Shown here: positions 2,782 through 9,966 of the stretch, piece after piece
How positions within the stretch are numbered: the stretch's first letter is position 1
Layout of the letters: every line of letters begins with the position of its first letter
Assembly: GCA_046758385.1 (NCBI GenBank)
Contig: JBHIAB010000001.1
Coordinates: 2,608 to 66,607 of the forward strand
Origin: Candidatus Methylomirabilia bacterium
GTDB lineage: Bacteria > Methylomirabilota > Methylomirabilia > Rokubacteriales > CSP1-6
Direction: 5' to 3'
Length of the DNA: 64,000 nt
Notes under the pieces: model-generated
Seen by the model: the letters and a program-made list of their open reading frames with translations, nothing else
Told to the model about the DNA's origin: nothing
Databases searched by the model: none
Position numbers and translations under genes: made by a program

Positions 2782-3063
2782 GGCGTCGAACGCCCTCAGC
2801 GGATGAGGACTGCCACGGGCTTCCCCCTGTCAATCACGACGACCCGCTCGCCCTTCCTGATCAGCGCCAGGTAGTGGGTGAGGCGGTTTTTTCAGCTCCC
2901 GAACCCCGATGATACGCATGTGGCCATTATAGCCACATGACCTTTACTATCAAGGCACCCGCTAAACAGGTTAGCCCGGAGTGCTGGTCGACGTTCCACC
3001 GCTCTGGGAGGCAGGCGAGTCTCCTCGGAGGCGTGAGGCGACTGTGCTGTGTCTGATGACTGT

Positions 3064-3828
3064 CTACTGGGCCATGAATCCCCCGTCGACGATCATCTCT
3101 GCTCCGGTCATGAACGACGACTCGTCGGAGGCCAGAAAGAGGGAGGCATACGCGATCTCGCGGGGATGGGCGATGCGGCCCAGGGGAATGGCAGCCTTGA
3201 ACTCCTCCCGGAGCGCTCGGGTGAGGTAGGGGGCCTGCATGGGCGTATCAACGATGCCGGGGTGGATGATGTTCGACCGGATGTTGTCCTTGGCGAACTG
3301 GATCGCGAGTGACTTGTTCAGGGAGATCAACGCGCCCTTGGCGGCGGTGTAGGCGTCCTGAGCCCGGGTGAAGCCGGCCAGGGCCGAGACCGATCCGACG
3401 AGGATGATGGAGCCCCCGCCGGCCTTCTTGAGGTGAGGGATCCCGTACTTGGTCACCCAGAACGCGGACTTCAGGTTGATGCCCATCACCCGGTCCCAGG
3501 CCGCCTCGTCGGTTTCGAGAACTGAGCGGTCGCGGTCTTTCCAGAGCACGCCGGCATTGTTGTAGAGAACATGGAGGGATCGAAAGGCTTGCACGCCTTC
3601 CTCGACCATCCGCTTGACGTCCTCCTCCACTGCCACATCTCCGACCGCGGCCACCGCCTCGCCGCCCGCCCGCTTCACCAGCTCCACGGTCTCATTGGCC
3701 GCGTCCCGGTTGATGTCAGCCACCACCATCCGCGCCCCGTGCTCGGCGAAGAGGAGCGAGGCTTCACGCCCCATTCCCATCCCCGAGCCCGTGATCAGCG
3801 CCACTCTACCCTGAAGCCTTGCCATCAC
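3064..3828 (-). CDS. SDR-family NAD(P)-dependent oxidoreductase
   Basis: 254 aa. TGSGMGMG glycine-rich dinucleotide motif, NNAG, catalytic YxxxK (YTAAK). Confidence 0.75.
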   Translation of the reverse strand: MMARLQGRVALITGSGMGMGREASLLFAEHGARMVVADINRDAANETVELVKRAGGEAVAAVGDVAVEEDVKRMVEEGVQAFRSLHVLYNNAGVLWKDRDRSVLETDEAAWDRVMGINLKSAFWVTKYGIPHLKKAGGGSIILVGSVSALAGFTRAQDAYTAAKGALISLNKSLAIQFAKDNIRSNIIHPGIVDTPMQAPYLTRALREEFKAAIPLGRIAHPREIAYASLFLASDESSFMTGAEMIVDGGFMAQ

Positions 3829-3887
3829 ACCTCTGCGGAGCGACCCGGCGCATCAGTAAGCTCCTTAAATTCGCTCGAAGTTCCGAA

Positions 3888-4217
3888 TCAGCGCTTGTAG
3901 GCGTTCACCGTGGGTGCGTTGAAGTACGCGAACTCGCGTCCCATGGCCACCTGACCCGCGAGCCACTGCTGATGGTGATGGAGCACCCCTGCTGGGCGGA
4001 GCACCCAGCGCGGCGCCTCCTCGATGGGATCTCCCTCCTCGGTGTAGACGTCGCAGAAGACAAGGGCAGTCTTGGGGAGCCAGGGAATCAGGCGGAGCGT
4101 CGAGAGGTCGGGTGAAATCCGCTTGGAACTCGCCGCTCCGAACACACTCCTTGTTGAACGCCCCGAGAGTATGGGCGTGGCTTGAGAACGACAGACCACA
4201 GGATTTTTGGCTGGCAT
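3888..4217 (-). pseudogene. glutamine synthetase remnant (N-terminal beta-grasp domain only, ~109 aa)
   Basis: FGAASSKRISPDLSTLRLIPWLPKTALVFCDVYTEEGDPIEEAPRWVLRPA...GREFAYF matches the GS N-domain pattern (FDGSSI..SDM.L.PD...DPW...lvfCDV...PR.iL; GpEpEFFlF). It ends with NAYKR (cf. GS NSYKRL) then stop. Far too short for a functional GS (~450-470 aa). Confidence 0.4.
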
Positions 4218-4261
4218 GACACAACGAAGTGTACCAGAAGTGCCGCACTTCCAACGAGCCG

Positions 4262-4759
4262 CTAGGTCGAGCGGTAGTTGCCGAACTGGAGCGCGATCCC
4301 CAGGTCCCTCTCCCGAAGCTTGGCAATGACGGCCTGAAGGTCGTCCCGGCTCTTGGCCGTGACGCGCACCTGATCCTGCTGGATCTGAGCCTGCACCCTG
4401 AGCTTCGTATCCTTGATGAGCTTGACGATCTCCCTGGCCTTCTCCCCCGGAATGCCCTGCTGCAGGCCGATCCTCTGGCGGAGGGCCCCGCCAGCCGCGG
4501 CTTCCACTGCTCCGTAGTCCAGGGCCTTGAGCGGGACACCCCGGCGGTGAAGCCGGGACTGGAGGATGTCCACCACGGCCCTGAGCTTCATGTCGTCGTC
4601 GGCCAACACGGTGAGGGCAGTCTTCTCAACCGTGACCTGGCAGCGTGAGCCTTTGAGATCGTAGCGCTGCTGGATTTCCTTGGTGGTCTGGTTGACCGCG
4701 TTGGTCACTTCCTGCATCTCCACCTTGCAGTACACGTCGAAGGAGTTCTCGGCTGCCAC
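4262..4759 (-). CDS. yajQ: YajQ-family cyclic-di-GMP-binding protein (UPF0234)
   Basis: 165 aa. [31 protein letters not shown] matches the YajQ N-terminus. GTG start. Confidence 0.75.
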
Positions 4760-4761
4760 GC

Positions 4762-4908
4762 TTACTTCACACCAAATAACTTCTGATCACGCGAATCAAG
4801 CATGATCTGTTCGATTACGTCCGGCTTCAACGCCTTTCGCTCAATCTTGTTGCGGATCCTATCGCGATACACCTCCAGGATCCTGTCCTCGTCGAACTTG
4901 TTCCTCAT
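4762..4908 (-). CDS. hypothetical small protein (48 aa), first gene of lower-GC island
   Basis: Manual translation [48 protein letters not shown]. No strong RBS. Below ORF-track length cutoff. Confidence 0.2.
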
Positions 4909-5020
4909 CCGCAAAATGGACGCAAGAGTACGCGAAACTGAAACCCGGTACCGCTACGTCCTTTGACCCTTGTACAGACTGAAAAGGTACACCACGTCTT
5001 CGTCTCTGATCGGATCAGCC

Positions 5021-5257
5021 TTAAGGTATCGGTACGAAAAGGGTCCCCTCCTCGTCTGAAGAGTGTCGGTACCGCCAAACGGTCTTTCTTGGACGTATTT
5101 CGGGAGTCGGGATCTGGCCGAGCCAGGCCGTCGCCGAGTGTTCGCTCGGATATCTCTGGACCGACACGCCAAGAACCTTCAACTTTGGACAGGCAGACAT
5201 CCTCCCATATATGAACGCTTTCACGTCCTCCTCGCTCATACTGACGAGTCGACTCAT
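5021..5257 (-). CDS. hypothetical protein (low-GC island)
   Basis: 78-aa ORF immediately downstream of 5262..5483 on the same strand. Competing ORFs on the other strand. No recognisable domain. Confidence 0.2.
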   Translation of the reverse strand: MSRLVSMSEEDVKAFIYGRMSACPKLKVLGVSVQRYPSEHSATAWLGQIPTPEIRPRKTVWRYRHSSDEEGTLFVPIP

Positions 5258-5261
5258 TGCT

Positions 5262-5483
5262 TCACTTCTCTCTCAAGCGCCTTTGGAACAGCCGAATAAG
5301 CTCCTCAGCACGCCGAATGCTTTCCCTAATAATACTCTCGAAGTTCCTAGGATCATACGGGGTCTGGGGGCTTGGTACGGCGTACGGGGAATAGTCAGCT
5401 TCGTCCCTGAGATTGCGTAGCTCTTTCAGCGCATTCCCTGCCCCATGTTCTGCTCGTACTAGCTGGTCTATCTCCCTGGTCAA
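5262..5483 (-). CDS. hypothetical protein (low-GC island)
   Basis: 73-aa ORF, charged/helical (…RRAEELIRLFQRRLREK). No recognisable domain. Confidence 0.25.
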   Translation of the reverse strand: MTREIDQLVRAEHGAGNALKELRNLRDEADYSPYAVPSPQTPYDPRNFESIIRESIRRAEELIRLFQRRLREK

Positions 5484-5597
5484 CGCGCCGTGATTATCCT
5501 GATCCTAGCGCTTGATAGTGGGCTATTTTGAATCACTTGTGCCATAATACTGGCACGGCGCTATATTTAGGAGCCCCGTAGACGCATCACTTTCCAG

Positions 5598-5626
5598 TTG
5601 ACGTGACCTGATGCGTCCTCTACACT
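5598..5626 (+). promoter_or_regulatory. sigma-70-like promoter (TTGACG-17-TACACT) flanked by paired palindromes, upstream of 5652 gene
   Basis: -35 TTGACG 5598-5603, 17-nt spacer, -10 TACACT 5621-5626. RBS AAGGAGG 5635-5641, 10 nt before ATG 5652. Inverted repeats GACGCATCA(5581-5589)/TGATGCGTC(5609-5617) and CGCATCA(5627-5633)/TGATGCG(5642-5648). Confidence 0.4.
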
Positions 5627-5651
5627 CGCATCATAAGGAGGTGATGCGAGC

Positions 5652-6077
5652 ATGGTTAGGGCGACAGAAGGGGAGCGAGAAATCCTGCGCCAAGCCGCTG
5701 AGGGCGCGGCGGCCATCTTGCCCAAGCTAGAGCAGGATCGGGCCGATCTCGATGACCGGATCGCCTCTCTCAGGGCCGCGATAGCGGCTTGGGAGGCTAT
5801 CTCGGGGAAACGACCGAGGAAGTCGCCTACCCCTGCCTCGGCTGAATCAGCTGAAGCGATACCCTCTCATCCGATCAAGCGCGGACAGGTTGCCCAGCAC
5901 ATTGACGCCATCCTAAAAGCGGGTGGTGACTACGACGAACCGGACCTGAGAAAAGCGATCTTTGACAGGTTCAATGTGGTCTATGGGCGCCCCACGATCT
6001 ACTCGGCATTGCGTCGAGGCCGCAAGATCGGGAGATATGAACAAAAAGAGAAGCGCTGGAGGATGAAGGTTGCGTGA
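5652..6077 (+). CDS. hypothetical protein (141 aa), island-borne
   Basis: Strong RBS and promoter upstream. N-terminal coiled-coil-like segment; C-terminal basic region. No recognisable domain. Confidence 0.5.
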   Translation: MVRATEGEREILRQAAEGAAAILPKLEQDRADLDDRIASLRAAIAAWEAISGKRPRKSPTPASAESAEAIPSHPIKRGQVAQHIDAILKAGGDYDEPDLRKAIFDRFNVVYGRPTIYSALRRGRKIGRYEQKEKRWRMKVA

Positions 6078-6120
6078 ACAACAAGAGGCCGTGATCGGCT
6101 TTTCCAGATCACGGCCCCCG

Positions 6121-6207
6121 TGCCCCCGTAGCTCAGCAGCAGGCTCAGCCATAGAGCACCCGCCTACTGAGCGGAAGGTCGCGCGTTCGAGGCCCGCCGG
6201 GGGCACC
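6121..6207 (+). tRNA. tRNA-like element (probable pseudo-tRNA on a tRNA-Arg(ACG)-like scaffold; anticodon loop CUACUGA = ACU; aberrant 19-nt D-loop; encoded CCA)
   Basis: Acceptor stem GCCCCCG/CGGGGGC, discriminator A + CCA. T-arm GCGCG-TTCGAGG-CCCGC. AGGTC variable loop. Anticodon stem CCCGC/GCGGA. The D-loop carries a ~10-12 nt internal duplication (GCTCAGCAG|GCTCAGCC). Confidence 0.4.
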
Positions 6208-6354
6208 AATTTCAACGGGGTATCCGGTGCGTCAACACCGAACACCCCCAACCCCGACACACCCCGCAGAGAGGAGTCGGGATTGGGGCCGCTAAGCCTC
6301 ACTTTTTTATCACTCTTGCGTGGGTGCTTGTCAAGGGTAAAGGCAAGGCCCACC

Positions 6355-7167
6355 ATGAACGTCCTGAACCCCGAAAGGAAGCTGGCTATTCTCTCCGCAT
6401 TGGTAGAAGGCAACTCCATGCGCTCTATTTCCCGCATGACCGGTGTCCACAAAACAACCATCTTGCGCTTGCTCAAGGAAGTGGGCGATAACTGTGTCAG
6501 GATTCTCGATGAGCGGATGCGCAGCCTGACCTGCCGCGTCATCGAGGGTGACGAGGTCTGGAGTTTCGTCAAAAAGAAGCAGCGGCGGCTGACCGCCGAG
6601 GAAAAGCTGAATCCCGAGTTTGGCGACCAGTACGCCTATATCGCCTTGGACCCGGACACGAAGCTCGTCCCGGTGTTCGTCGTCGGCAAGCGGGACGGTG
6701 CGACCACGTTCCGCTTCGTCCAGCAGCTTCGGCATCGGCTCGCCAATCGCATTCAGATAAGTACCGACGCCTTCCGCCCCTATGTGGAGGCCGTGGAGAG
6801 CGCCTTTGGGGCGGACATCGAATACGCGCAGTTGACCAAGGTCTACGAGGCCGAGAACCCAGGCCCTGGGTGCTATAGTCCGCCCAAAGTCACTGGCGTC
6901 CAGGTTACAGAGATCGCCGGCCGACCGGAGCCGAAGAAGACCTGCACGTCCTACGTCGAGCGGAACAACCTCACCATCCGCATGCAGCTTCGGCGCTTCA
7001 CGCGACTGACCAATGGGTTTAGCAAGAAGCTGGAGAACCTGAAGGCAGCTCTCGCTATTCACTTCGCTCATTACAACTTCTGCCGGATTCACGGCTCGCT
7101 CCGCGTGACCCCGGCGATGCCGCCAGGAGTCACGGACCGCATCTGGAAGTTGGAGGAACTGCTATGA
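6355..7167 (+). CDS. IS1-family transposase, single fused ORF (InsA-like HTH + InsB-like catalytic domain)
   Basis: 270 aa. HTH [23 protein letters not shown] resembles IS1 InsA. Catalytic part aligns to E. coli IS1 InsB blocks ([13 protein letters not shown] ~ DEQWGYVGAKSRQRW; YAYIALD...[11 protein letters not shown] ~ [48 protein letters not shown] ~ [33 protein letters not shown] ~ GHYLNIKHY). Terminal inverted repeats not located. Confidence 0.7.
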   Translation: [270 protein letters not shown]

Positions 7168-8228
7168 GGGCGCAGAAGGAGCGCAAGCTTGACGGCACTC
7201 CCAAGCTGGGCGAGAAACTCCGTATCGGCGGCACGATTGTTCATTTTGGTCGTGCTGAGCGCTTGTATCCGCACTGGCCGATCCCGACCTGTATCATTGT
7301 CGATGGACCATACGGGATCAGCGGATTCCCCGGTGACCCGCCCAGTCATCGGGACTTGCCCGACTGGTATGCCCCTCATGTCGCCGCGTGGTCACGGTAC
7401 TCCATGCCACAAACGACCTTATGGTTCTGGGGCACGGAAATCGGCTGGGCGGTTGTTCATCCGCTGCTAGATCGACATGGCTGGGAATATCGCTCGTGCC
7501 ATATCTGGGACAAAGGACTGACCCACATCGCCGGGAACGCCAACTCCCTCACGCTTCGTAAGTTCCCCGTCGTGACCGAAGTCTGCGTCCAATACGTCAA
7601 GGCGGCCCGCTTCTCCGTGAACGGTCGACAGCTGTCAATGCAAGAGTGGCTTCGATACGAATGGGAAAGATCCGGCTTGCCATTGACGCTCACTAATAAA
7701 GCGTGTGGAGTCTTAAACGCGGCGACCCGGAAATACTTCACCAAGTGCCACCTTTGGTACTATCCCCCCGTCGATGCGTTTGTTCGCTTCGTTAAATACG
7801 CCAACAAGCATGGCCGGCCTGAAGGGCGCCCCTACTTCAGCGTGGATGGGACGCGGCCCCTATCGGGCGAAGAATGGGCGAAGATGCGCGCAAAGTTTCA
7901 CTGCGAGGTCGGCGTCAACAATATCTGGCGCGAATCACCTGTCCGTGGCGAAGAGCGGATTAATGGATTCAGGTCGAGCATGCAGTGGAAGTATGCGAGT
8001 CTCCACGGGAGCCAAAAGCCGTTGCGCCTGATCGAGTTAATCGTGCGGGCCAGCACCGATCCCGGAGACGCAGTGTGGGACCCGTTCGGCGGCCTTTGTA
8101 CGACGGCCGTTGCTTGTCTCAGAGCGGGCCGCCGTTGCTTCAGCGCCGAGATCGTTCCCGAGTTCTACCTCGCCGCCAAAGAAAGGGTGGCCGCGTATGG
8201 CAAGGCCGTCAAAACCAGGACGCGTTGA
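7164..8228 (+). CDS. DNA methyltransferase, beta-class N6-adenine/N4-cytosine (PF01555-type; motif IV before motif I)
   Basis: 354 aa. Motif IV variant IIVDGPYG near the N-terminus. Motif I region ELIVRASTDPGDAVWDPFGGLCTTAVACLRAGRRCFSAEI near the C-terminus. Start overlaps transposase stop (ctATGAgg). Confidence 0.7.
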   Translation: MRAQKERKLDGTPKLGEKLRIGGTIVHFGRAERLYPHWPIPTCIIVDGPYGISGFPGDPPSHRDLPDWYAPHVAAWSRYSMPQTTLWFWGTEIGWAVVHPLLDRHGWEYRSCHIWDKGLTHIAGNANSLTLRKFPVVTEVCVQYVKAARFSVNGRQLSMQEWLRYEWERSGLPLTLTNKACGVLNAATRKYFTKCHLWYYPPVDAFVRFVKYANKHGRPEGRPYFSVDGTRPLSGEEWAKMRAKFHCEVGVNNIWRESPVRGEERINGFRSSMQWKYASLHGSQKPLRLIELIVRASTDPGDAVWDPFGGLCTTAVACLRAGRRCFSAEIVPEFYLAAKERVAAYGKAVKTRTR

Positions 8229-8976
8229 GCCGACCAAGTGGGAACATTATGAGTTATGGAGGCGGGTAATCGAAGCCATCCATGCGCTGCCACTTCATTT
8301 CAAGTCAGCGACCGTCATAGAAGGGATGCTCGTCACGGACATATTCACCCTGAACGCTGCACTTGGAGCAACAATAGAAGAGCAGGTCGTGGCCACCCTC
8401 AATGCCCTGCGTCCAGTATGGGATCCGGACAAGAAACTTCAGACTTTTGGCTTCGTGAGGCAAACGCAGACGTTCCCTGATGTGCTGCTTAGAAGAAAGA
8501 CTGACGGGCAATAGATTCTGATGGGGATCGAACTTAAGGGCTGGTATATGCTCGCGAAGGAAGGCGAACCGAGCTTCAGATTCACGGTTAACGCGAACGC
8601 ATGCAATCCCTGGGATTTGATCGTCGTCGTTCCGTGGGTTCTCTCAAATGTTTTGTCCGGCTCGCCCGTCGTCCATCCGGTATTCATTGACCTTACCCGG
8701 TATACTGCTGAGCAGCGGAACTATTATTGGCAATACGAGCGCGAAGCTAAGGGCGACCTCGGCGTAATCCTTGCGGAAGGTGCCACCACCTATCCCGTCA
8801 AGAGCGACAAGATTTCCGACAAGGCCAAGCATGATCCGAGCAGCAACTTTGGCCGACTGGCTCGGTACGGCATCATGGAAGCGTTCGTCAAAGCCACGAT
8901 GAATACGCCTGTTCGAGGCTTGCCAGCCCATCAATGGTTGGCATTTTTCAAGCGCGGGATCAAAGAACCCGATTGA
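8197..8976 (+). pseudogene. PD-(D/E)xK restriction-endonuclease-like gene interrupted by an in-frame TAG (8512-8514); fragments 8197..8514 and 8521..8976
   Basis: Both ORFs are in the same frame. Upstream fragment ends ...QTFPDVLLRRKTDGQ*. Downstream fragment begins (IL)MGIELKGWYM..., so the stop falls exactly between the PD and ExK catalytic elements (PD-x15-ELK). The gene sits directly downstream of the MTase. Confidence 0.5.
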
Positions 8977-9001
8977 AAATAGCCCAGTACCTAGCGCTTT
9001 A

Positions 9002-9295
9002 TCATAAAGACTGTCGCCCGCGCGGCGTGGTAAGCTCCATAGTATGCACGGGATACGGCGCCGCGCCGCGCCGCACCAACGGGTCCTTGCTCTTAGCGAG
9101 GACTCTCGCGGCTTTGATGAAACCCGTGGCCAGGGCGAATCTGTCCCTGACTATGCTGGTAACTGCGCGCTCTAACCACCTTGCATCCAACGTCTCCACA
9201 TCCGTCAGCGAACGCAGCAGGGCACACTGGGACGACGAGAGTTTCTCGAGCAGCTTCTTGGAAGCGTCCGCCGGCATGCCGCGGCCGATTGTCAC
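9002..9295 (-). CDS. hypothetical protein (97 aa), lower-GC, overlaps lolA stop
   Basis: ORF only; no recognisable domain. 4-bp overlap with lolA suggests co-transcription. Confidence 0.3.
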   Translation of the reverse strand: MTIGRGMPADASKKLLEKLSSSQCALLRSLTDVETLDARWLERAVTSIVRDRFALATGFIKAARVLAKSKDPLVRRGAAPYPVHTMELTTPRGRQSL

Positions 9296-9966
9296 CGACC
9301 CGGATCGAGGGGGACCACGGCCACACCTGGCGGCGGTGTGAAGACGAAGAGCTCATCACCCAGTGTCGGGTTGACCCCGATCTCGGTGAACTGCATGGTC
9401 ACGGTGTTGTCGAACTGGTCGTAGAGCACGGCCTTCCGCACCAGGTACTGCTCTCGGTCCACGGAGAGGATGAGGCGCGTGAGCACCGCGGTGGGCACCT
9501 TCGGCCTCAGGTCGATCAGCGGGTTCCCCGCCTGGTCCACCTTGAGCGGGTTCAAGAAGCGGACCGTGAACTCCTCCCGGACGCGCCCCAGTCCCGCCAG
9601 GAAACTTCCCGCGGGACCCGCGAGGGCCCGCGGCGCATCGCCTACGTTCACCTGATTCAGCTCCGGCGTGTACACCCAGATCGAGGTCCCGTCGGAGACA
9701 ATCTGCTGAGGCGAGGGAGTCTGGTACTCCCACCGCATCCTCCCCGGCTTCTTCAAATAGACGACCCCCTCGGCCTCGATGGTCTGCCCGAAGCTCTTGT
9801 TGAAGGCACTCTGGACGAACTCGGCGCGAAGGGTAGTGATCCGCGCATAGGTCGACTCGAGCCTGGCCACCACCCCATCGAGCGTGAGCGCCGAGGCGAG
9901 GCTGGGGAAAAAGATCAGGACGAGACCAATGACAGCTCGGCCAAGAGGTGCACTGGCTCTCCTCAT
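9292..9966 (-). CDS. lolA: outer-membrane lipoprotein carrier protein LolA
   Basis: 224 aa. Signal peptide, then LolA-like core (KKPGRMRWEYQTPSPQQIVSDGTSIWVYTPELNQV). Confidence 0.7.
   Translation of the reverse strand: MRRASAPLGRAVIGLVLIFFPSLASALTLDGVVARLESTYARITTLRAEFVQSAFNKSFGQTIEAEGVVYLKKPGRMRWEYQTPSPQQIVSDGTSIWVYTPELNQVNVGDAPRALAGPAGSFLAGLGRVREEFTVRFLNPLKVDQAGNPLIDLRPKVPTAVLTRLILSVDREQYLVRKAVLYDQFDNTVTMQFTEIGVNPTLGDELFVFTPPPGVAVVPLDPGR

Follow-up and report, generated by a model that had tools for sequence, protein, structure and literature searches.

A segment of low G+C content, located at positions 4760-9291 of a 64-kb stretch of the genome of a Candidatus Methylomirabilia bacterium (called here the window), separates the genes yajQ and lolA, and had been described in an earlier note as a single genomic island. 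Our analysis indicates that this segment is made of two layers, namely an old, decayed module of two genes, one encoding a HEPN protein and the other called here ORF182 (ORF, open reading frame), and an IS1-family transporter insertion sequence (IS) with restriction-modification cargo that was recently inserted into it; we assign to this reading a probability of roughly 0.85. The transposition of the IS into the HEPN locus is shown by terminal inverted repeats, a target-site duplication and an empty site in a relative. The assembly of the segment can be followed at base resolution, with a module that decays, an IS that lands in it and the restriction gene of this IS that is then lost, the last step being visible in a single base that differs between sibling samples. 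Whereas there is nothing unusual about the locus itself, the IS lineage is of interest, with its tRNA-like leader, its interchangeable cargo and its transposase-less cassette.

The transposon occupies positions 5514-8991 (3,478 bp, plus strand). It is bounded by 21-bp terminal inverted repeats, GATAGTGGGCTATTTTGAATC on the left (5514-5534, plus strand), of which position 2 is mutated (GA for GG), and GGTACTGGGCTATTTTCAATC, given as the reverse complement, on the right (8971-8991, minus strand), and each of them is abutted by one copy of the 8-bp target-site duplication TAGCGCTT, at 5506-5513 on the left and 8992-8999 on the right. The longest inverted repeat of the region is a 28-nt match between 5507-5534 and 8971-8998, part of which is accounted for by the palindromic AGCGCT of the duplicated target; this pattern is present at just these two sites in the window, for 0 expected by chance. 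Matching ends were found in the related loci L033, L041, L049 and L127. As the ends of L033, L041 and L049 consist of GGTGATG, GGTACTG or GGTAGTG followed by GGCTATTTT, they set, together with the flanking 8-bp repeats, the termini of the window element at 5514 and 8991. The end heptamers of the latter are GGTACTG on the right and GATAGTG, with one mutation, on the left, compared to GGTGATG and GGTACTG in L033 and GGTAGTG in L041 and L049. Perfect 8-bp duplications flank three independent elements, those of the window (TAGCGCTT), of L033 (CGGCGTCG) and of L041 (CACCGCCG). The first candidates for the duplication, TTATC[C/A]T and CCTAGCGCTT, and with them a precise excision from one inverted repeat to the other, were given up in favour of TAGCGCTT when L033 and L041 had revealed where the terminus lies. 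A search for direct repeats near the outer borders, at about 4760 and 9300, had been suggested, but none is present there: the only match, of 19 nt and 79% identity, lies inside coding sequence and was judged to be due to chance, and the real target duplication is the one that abuts the transposon.

The insertion point lies within the HEPN pseudogene. Locus L121 aligns continuously over this point with a single copy of the target (AAGCGTCA, compared to AAGCGCTA in the window) and is thus an empty site. A look-up with LolA returned the same insertion allele only and no empty site within the same population, and exact-protein look-ups with the YajQ and the transposase of the window gave no record.

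The outer layer consists of ORF182, the partner of the HEPN gene, which is a pseudogene with a frameshift and an in-frame stop (4762-5257, minus strand), and of the two parts of the HEPN (UPF0332) pseudogene, i.e. a C-terminal part that ends at the left copy of the duplication (5262-5513, minus strand) and an N-terminal part with an internal frameshift (8992-9277, minus strand). Three-frame translation of the minus strand on either side of the IS gives HEPN-like helices in different frames, and the annotated 97-aa ORF (9002-9295) is an out-of-frame read-through of the N-terminal part. When the IS was removed and one frameshift corrected, the reconstructed ORF matched Pfam HEPN (PF05168) with 23.6 bits (cut-off 22) over positions 8-114 of the 117 of the profile, and was 80% identical over 100% coverage to UPF0332/HEPN proteins of 175 aa; P0206, the match at 80% identity, itself carries PF05168. 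Regarding the partner, tblastn of the ORF182 of L121 against window 4762-5257 revealed 71% identity in two frames, with a stop where the relatives have Tyr. ORF78 (5021-5257, 78 aa), considered as a gene of its own, has no homologue and is a fragment of the ORF182 pseudogene. Neither the small ORFs of the window in Pfam and NCBIfam nor the intact ORF182 in Pfam gave a family match. Because 4762-5257 is a broken ORF182, the small ORFs, including the one without homologue, are explained: they had been taken for unrelated genes, but are fragments of two known ones, HEPN and ORF182.

The order lolA-HEPN (175 aa)-ORF182/183-yajQ is intact and free of the IS in L121, L125 and L126 (ORF182/183 at L121:1375-1923, L125:4552-5100 and L126:4548-5099), and there too the pair is of low G+C content, 0.48-0.59 compared to 0.62-0.70. 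Relatives therefore share the content of the locus in part, namely the outer HEPN-ORF182 pair but not the inner transposon. A 175-aa HEPN protein paired with a small adjacent gene resembles the HEPN (UPF0332) toxin-antitoxin-like modules. However, an MNT nucleotidyltransferase cannot be recognised in ORF182, several relatives have the pair fixed between lolA and yajQ, and both genes are dead in the window. ORF182/183 may represent an undescribed HEPN-associated partner, unlike the usual MNT nucleotidyltransferase antitoxin.

In the proposed sequence of events, the HEPN/UPF0332 and ORF182 genes would have come between lolA and yajQ long ago, in one Rokubacteria sublineage and in the orientation of the backbone; both have decayed in this genome by frameshifts and stop codons. 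The 3,478-bp IS transposed more recently into the HEPN gene, which was probably dead by then; the DDE transposase of the IS recognised terminal inverted repeats of the GGTAnTG type, and an 8-bp staggered cut left the duplication of TAGCGCTT. The inserted unit reads, on the plus strand, promoter, ORF141, hairpin, tRNA-like sequence, leader, transposase, methyltransferase and restriction enzyme, the last three genes overlapping. The idea of a region mobilised by an IS thus holds for 3,478 of the ~4,530 bp but not for the outer ~1.05 kb, and a plus-strand orientation, attributed before to the whole stretch, is that of the 3.5-kb transposon only, the remainder being minus-strand pseudogene debris.

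The transposase gene (6355-7167, plus strand) encodes a DDE transposase of 270 aa as a single ORF, and its assignment to the IS1 family, made already from the bare sequence, agrees with matches to the family profiles that are below the cut-offs and with motifs in common with InsB. The protein matches NCBIfam transpos_IS1 (7.8e-21) with 74.9 bits, below the cut-off of 100, and Pfam DDE_Tnp_IS1 with 24.0 bits for a cut-off of 24.1. BLASTP against E. coli InsB gave 3e-05 over the E-motif, the first-D motif being aligned too, and the motifs DE.W..V, TD....Y and ER.NL..R are common to both proteins. Plasmid-borne relatives of 43-46% identity bear the name 'IS1 family transposase' given by the Prokaryotic Genome Annotation Pipeline. 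By these matches the transposase is a distant member of the IS1 family, significant by E-value and under the curated thresholds. Its relatives were collected from 80 metagenome loci. The inferred catalytic triad D66, D138 and E202 is intact; the protein departs from 2 of 65 near-invariant positions defined on 77 relatives, neither of them in the inferred triad, and its gene is a single uninterrupted ORF in the window and in these 77 relatives. Two independent short-read assemblies, L122 and L123, both end exactly at window position 6987, inside the transposase gene, and this shared break hints that the part carrying the transposase and its leader is a multi-copy repeat in that community.

The comparison with IS1 of E. 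coli extends to the ends of the element. The termini of IS1 read GGT(A/G)NTG (GGTAATG and GGTGATG when read directly in IS1A), and the terminal repeats of the window element begin with the GGnnnTG of the family, the left one with one mutation. The target duplication is short, 8 bp in the window, L033 and L041, within the 8-9 bp of the family, and the motifs of the DDE transposase are shared. By contrast, IS1 expresses its transposase from insA and insB' joined by a programmed -1 frameshift, whereas the window element has one 270-aa ORF with a helix-turn-helix N-terminus, a feature that rules out the classical IS1 group and is compatible with subgroups of the family that have a single ORF. IS1 is 768 bp long, compared to 3.5 kb here, and the window element adds cargo, a leader with a tRNA-like sequence and, further upstream, a separate gene for a winged-helix protein. 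ORF141, the methylase gene and the restriction gene lie as passengers with the transposase gene between both IS ends, and the duplication lies outside, as in a transporter IS. The IS1 family of ISfinder includes single-ORF subgroups and reaches lengths of up to ~4.6 kb. A full-text literature search for ISMhu11 gave no match, and literature searches revealed no account in which IS1-family transporter IS or ISMhu11-type subgroups bear restriction-modification cargo or a tRNA-like leader.

The transposase gene is preceded by a structured leader that contains a tRNA-like cloverleaf (6122-6208, plus strand) with an encoded CCA and the anticodon loop CUACUGA (anticodon ACU). A GC-rich hairpin without U-tract (6087-6116, plus strand; -20.3 kcal/mol, z = -3.65), conserved in the subclade alignment, is located just 5' of the cloverleaf, and the leader proper (6209-6354, plus strand; folding z = -3.07) follows it and folds, after the CCA, into four successive hairpins: a long one, one with CCCGAC/GTCGGG, a small one and one in which the Shine-Dalgarno region is paired. 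In L033-L039, L041 and L049 (L035 and L036 being one locus), a tRNA-like sequence precedes the ATG of the transposase gene by 143-149 nt and lies on the strand of that gene, and the truncated L040 has part of it; its bearers are transposase relatives of at least 59% identity, the more distant ones being without it. The whole leader, from the GC-rich hairpin through the cloverleaf to the Shine-Dalgarno hairpin, aligns across this subclade. RNAalifold gave 52 pairs, 29 of which with compensatory changes. In a 50-pair structure, compensatory change was counted in 29 pairs, 90.1% of the cells were paired compared to 34-52% in slid controls, and none of 500 shuffles reached the observed values. Pairing amounts to 96-97% in the acceptor, D and T stems and to 82% in the anticodon stem, the lowest of the helices.

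The window copy itself is degenerate. It matches Rfam RF00005 at 6122-6205 with 41.7 bits (gathering score 29), but was not called by ARAGORN, carries a 12-nt insertion in the D-loop without G18G19, and has a C-C mismatch in the T stem and a C-A mismatch in the anticodon stem; the canonical loop elements and uninterrupted stems of a working tRNA are absent from it. Its folding z is -1.3, compared to -5.9 for the L033 copy. The description of a pseudo-tRNA was right as to a degenerate tRNA-like sequence, but this sequence is conserved in the transposase leader and is not the relic of a host tRNA or of an attachment site. The tRNA-like sequence is a predicted conserved cis element of the transposase leader.

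The stem pairing pattern, together with an anticodon that shifts between copies, fits a function in cis, in structure or processing, better than a function in decoding. That the cloverleaf is a punctuation site for RNase P and 3' processing appears plausible, if somewhat short of probable. tRNAs serve as RNA-processing punctuation in polycistronic transcripts and are co-transcribed with mRNA in the tufB operon of E. coli. As in such systems, the cloverleaf separates two coding regions that belong to a single transcription unit and is flanked by stabilising hairpins, and the acceptor and T arms are the best conserved in the window lineage. Cleavage at the tRNA-like sequence would separate the transposase mRNA from ORF141 or read-through transcripts and, combined with the hairpin that occludes the Shine-Dalgarno sequence, would limit the transposase to a low level that does not depend on transcription from outside. 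Structure in the 5' untranslated region controls transposase expression in other IS, e.g. ISPpu9 (PMC8450116). Literature searches found no description of a tRNA-like element in a bacterial IS or transposase leader, and a covarying leader of ~270 nt with a cloverleaf before a DDE transposase could be a new means for an IS to insulate or tune the expression of its transposase.

A role limited to punctuation is challenged by the anticodon loop, which keeps U33 and a purine at position 37, and by the RCU anticodon found in 8 of 10 copies; since these features exceed the constraint that RNase P recognition needs, they keep the idea of decoding or of a decoy alive. The tRNA-shaped RNA could be an obligatory module. 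It might mature into a stable RNA of tRNA size with a regulatory or essential part in transposase expression or in transposition, or it might act in trans on the host, either by serving anticodon nucleases as a decoy or by reading AGY codons as a tRNA of the Arg type. That the element encodes a working tRNA, be it of the Arg type and reading AGY or a spare or decoy against anticodon nucleases, is nevertheless unlikely. The copies of L033, L038, L037 and L049 (53-60 bits) do have a canonical cloverleaf, T-loop, G18G19, U33, purine-37 and encoded CCA, which, like the prevalence of RCU, is what a working tRNA would display. Residues A20, C35, U36 and A73 resemble the identity set of ArgRS, and the lack of a long variable arm excludes a bacterial tRNA-Ser; among standard bacterial isoacceptors, none is known to combine an ACU or GCU anticodon with the lack of such an arm. 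However, the anticodon differs by lineage (ACU in L033, L034 and L049, GCU in L035/L036, L038 and L039, CGU in L037 and UGG in L041), conservation is lower in the anticodon stem than in any other helix, and the copies of L034, L035 and L039 are under the Rfam gathering score, that of the window being clearly degenerate. Moreover, the constant position within a covarying mRNA leader points to a role in cis, and an Arg-tRNA reading Ser codons would harm the cell. We thus retain the cis element as the preferred reading of the cloverleaf.

Two further comparisons concern the same stretch. The plasmid relatives with 43-46% identity have divergent helix-turn-helix genes upstream, only ~90-125 bp before the transposase ORF, a stretch too short to be informative on the leader. 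A tRNA-Val(TAC) lies ~250 nt upstream of a distant transposase relative (L051:5675-5750 and L052:1563-1638); no alignment with the subclade leader is obtained for it, and it is probably a host tRNA gene next to an insertion.

Downstream of the transposase, the window element carries an intact gene for a type II DNA methyltransferase of the N6/N4 class (7164-8228, plus strand), whose start overlaps the transposase stop (ATGA). The protein matches Pfam N6_N4_Mtase (1.3e-19, 71.4 bits for a cut-off of 26.7) and PADLOC MTase_II (5.9e-17). Its motif IV (window 7290-7320, residues 43-50) is DGPY rather than the usual DPPY or SPPY, the partner in L113 has DGAY, and this variant motif is conserved in the partner methylase family. 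The next gene, which starts inside the methylase gene, would encode a type II restriction endonuclease of the PD-ExK class (8197-8976, plus strand) and is interrupted by a sole in-frame TAG at 8512-8514, codon 106, between D95 and E112-x-K114. With the stop masked, the ORF has 2,568 homologues of ~260 aa covered from end to end, which carry E, D, Q or H at the position of the stop and an invariant D95 ... E112-L-K114, i.e. the PD-ExK pattern that the stop of the window splits. The match to PADLOC REase_II is weak (1.5e-6) and lies over the PD-ExK core, and a search of PDB sequences with the family gave no match. Homologues are located directly 3' of an N6_N4 methylase gene in L113, L127 and L128, the methylase of L113 being 50% identical to that of the window. 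From these features, 7164-8976 is a predicted type II restriction-modification pair with a nonsense-inactivated nuclease. As the TAG at codon 106 truncates the protein before E112-x-K114, an intact catalytic site of the endonuclease is absent from the window, leaving a solitary methylase and a nonsense pseudogene. By analogy with other type II systems, such a pair would probably stabilise the element by post-segregational killing.

The cargo varies between related elements while the backbone is kept. Between the window and L033, whose transposase is 87% identical, DNA homology is confined to 5584-7163, i.e. promoter, ORF141, leader and transposase, and ends at the transposase stop codon. The L033 element, of 5.8 kb, has the same backbone of ORF141, tRNA-like sequence and transposase, and the latter is followed by a C5 methylase (Dcm), ORF394 (394 aa) and Vsr, all within its inverted repeats. 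In L034, the left end of which is at 354, an Eco29kI-like nuclease and a Vsr-Dcm fusion come after the transposase, and the more distant L042, L048 and L050 are repeat-bounded elements of 3.0-4.1 kb with other passengers. Acido-Lenti-1 RNA motifs (Rfam RF01687) are present near distant related elements (L048:5132-5176, L050:791-836 and L050:10077-10122). In L127, the closest methylase (61%) and restriction gene (83%) stand alone between GGTACTGGGCTATTTTCA and AGTAGTGGGCCATTTTCA (425-2416), at the 3' end of a gene for a CaiB-like CoA-transferase; as the pair lies between these ends without a transposase, this unit is a mobile insertion cassette. An exact 8-bp repeat, CCTGAACG, flanks it, the left copy being located 14 nt outside the inverted repeat. 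A scan of viral contigs with the inverted repeat revealed no transposase relatives, only pairs of these ends (GGTAGTGGGCTA(C/T)TTT) that are 0.4-0.7 kb apart and resemble miniature inverted-repeat transposable elements (L140:1640-2343 and L150:1492-1891, on contigs of viral collections). The L127 pair and the L140 and L150 repeats are thus bounded by IS ends and lack a transposase, like mobile insertion cassettes and miniature elements in general, whereas the window element, with its transposase, is autonomous in design.

These comparisons suggest that cargo is captured or swapped as repeat-flanked cassettes in a slot downstream of the transposase, with capture by loss of the inner ends as the inferred link from cassette to transporter IS. 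That the element family is a dedicated vehicle for swapping restriction-modification cassettes, with the tRNA-shaped RNA as an obligatory functional module, is possible but on balance doubtful. A restriction-modification-bearing putative mobile element with terminal repeats identical to part of an IS has been reported (PMC2875022). Among mobile restriction-modification units, the PluTI element of Photorhabdus is a type II pair that forms a unit of horizontal transfer with IS-derived termini. Here, by contrast, a complete IS encloses the genes, its transposase and the cargo being linked in translation, and this IS backbone occurs with three different restriction-modification systems, one of which is also found as a transposase-less cassette. 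The carriage of restriction-modification systems as cargo of an IS1-type transposon gives their known mobility a concrete route.

It is very unlikely that only a short IS, made of transposase and leader, is mobile, with ORF141 and the restriction-modification genes acquired separately and the repeat at 5514 and 8991 coincidental or of another nature. Most transposase relatives are indeed without these cargo genes, homologues of ORF141 also occur away from any such transposase, and the right end is found ~115-240 bp past the transposase in L049 and L036. In the window, however, the 4-nt overlap of the transposase and methylase genes leaves no space for an IS end, and the repeat pattern that is present exactly twice in 64 kb, for 0 expected, is abutted by a perfect 8-bp duplication. 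In addition, the entire block is missing at the empty site of L121, and in L033 the repeats enclose a 5.8-kb unit with the same backbone and another restriction-modification cargo. The mobile unit is accordingly taken as the whole of 5514-8991.

Several observations weigh against this account and should be set beside it. The transposon is present as a single copy in the 64 kb, and the element of the window, with its mutated left repeat, degenerate tRNA-like sequence and amber-stopped nuclease gene, looks partly decayed and may no longer be mobile. In the HEPN frame, the pre-insertion target reads TAG, the TA of which is present in both copies of the duplication, and CAT or CAG is found there in relatives; the HEPN gene was probably broken already before the IS arrived, the order of events being not proven. 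In L034 the right end is not on the contig, so that the position of the restriction-modification genes inside that element is unproven, and the 14-nt offset of the L127 repeat is not explained by simple transposition of the cassette.

The inactivation of the restriction gene could be compared between sibling samples. Two Logan contigs match the window with 100% identity, L122 over 10411-6987 and L124 over 10411-8775. In L123, which comes from a sibling run, 1 base in 2,722 is different: position 8512 is T in the window and G in L123, where the codon is GAG (Glu) and the restriction gene is intact, with 259 aa. The knockout of the nuclease is thus recent and polymorphic, since this sibling contig differs by that one base. 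A G-to-T amber mutation has just knocked out the nuclease in this population and left a solitary methylase. What had been called a remnant of a restriction-modification system is accordingly one in that its nuclease is broken, but its methylase is whole and the nuclease gene has only one, polymorphic, nonsense mutation. That the TAG is read through by suppression or recoding, the system being still active, is scarcely credible: the stop is single in an otherwise intact ORF, 83% identical to full-length homologues, and a tRNA-like gene is close by, but the homologues carry ordinary E, D, Q or H at this position, GAG in the sibling contig indicates a simple nonsense substitution, and the window, where the other long ORFs all end normally, bears no sign of TAG reassignment. 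Amber suppression by the tRNA-like sequence was rejected, its anticodon being ACU and not CUA in a copy that is degenerate.

The low G+C content and foreign composition reported for the segment were both recovered. Its G+C content is 0.571, compared to a minimum of 0.601 (mean 0.647, sd 0.025) among 201 other 4.5-kb windows of the 64 kb. In sliding windows the values are 0.52-0.62 across ~4600-9200 and 0.64-0.70 in the flanks, and the tetranucleotide distance to the rest is 0.0277 for 4760-9291, whereas no other part of the 64 kb exceeds 0.0193. The segment is flanked by the backbone genes yajQ on the left (4262-4759, minus strand; Pfam DUF520, 3.4e-62) and lolA on the right (9292-9966, minus strand; Pfam LolA, 1.5e-29), the next gene beyond lolA in the window being that of FtsK. 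Synteny was examined in a set obtained by a scan for LolA with one genome per species, which yielded metagenome-assembled genomes of Rokubacteria/Methylomirabilota. The genes ftsK, lolA and yajQ are contiguous in 11 of 11 loci of close relatives (L001-L011), the gap between lolA and yajQ being 7-142 bp, and none of the genes of the segment is present. An insertion between yajQ and lolA relative to most relatives, as the earlier note held, is therefore confirmed, and so is its statement on integrases, none being encoded in any frame of the region. The idea of a decayed integrative element that used a tRNA as attachment site, the whole of 4760-9300 having arrived together, can be set aside almost entirely: the low G+C content of the whole stretch, the tRNA-like sequence and the lack, at first sight, of another mobility gene fit it, but integrase, border tRNA and attachment or other repeats at the outer borders were all not found, the tRNA-like sequence is internal, 600 bp from the nearest border, and in 10 unrelated contexts it precedes the transposase by a constant spacing, inverted repeats, a target duplication and an empty site of its own mark the inner 3.48 kb, and the intermediate state in L121, L125 and L126, which hold the outer 1.05 kb alone with both genes intact, refutes it as far as sequence can.

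ORF141 (5652-6077, plus strand), the first gene of the transposon, is a putative DNA-binding regulator of the element. Its AlphaFold2 model (predicted local distance difference test score of 90.6) consists of a 46-residue N-terminal helix, a linker and a C-terminal winged helix, with weak fold matches to domains of the PadR, MecI, Fur and Z-alpha types; PADLOC gave no match for this protein. A counterpart with 60% identity occupies the same position in L033, and ORF141 has 85 cluster representatives overall. It does not accompany the IS regularly: in L034, L036 and L041 the upstream ORFs bear no relation to it, and homologues are also found with no tRNA or transposase near. Its putative promoter and operator region (5583-5648, plus strand) has a -35 box TTGACG (5598) and a -10 box TACACT. 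A strong σ70 promoter had been proposed here; the frequency of promoter-like sites is not above chance (2 found in the scan, 1.7 expected), but the -35 box TTGACG is conserved in L033. Four copies of a 7-mer, TGATGCG or its complement CGCATCA by turns, surround the promoter and the ribosome-binding site of ORF141 (5583-5648), which suggests an operator for ORF141 and its autoregulation.

Finally, a second variable spot lies next to the segment, between rimO and yajQ (window 2782-4261), where a gene for a short-chain dehydrogenase (3064-3828, minus strand) and further ORFs are found; the spacing between rimO and yajQ is only ~100 bp in L001 and L006 and 0.5-3.7 kb in other relatives.

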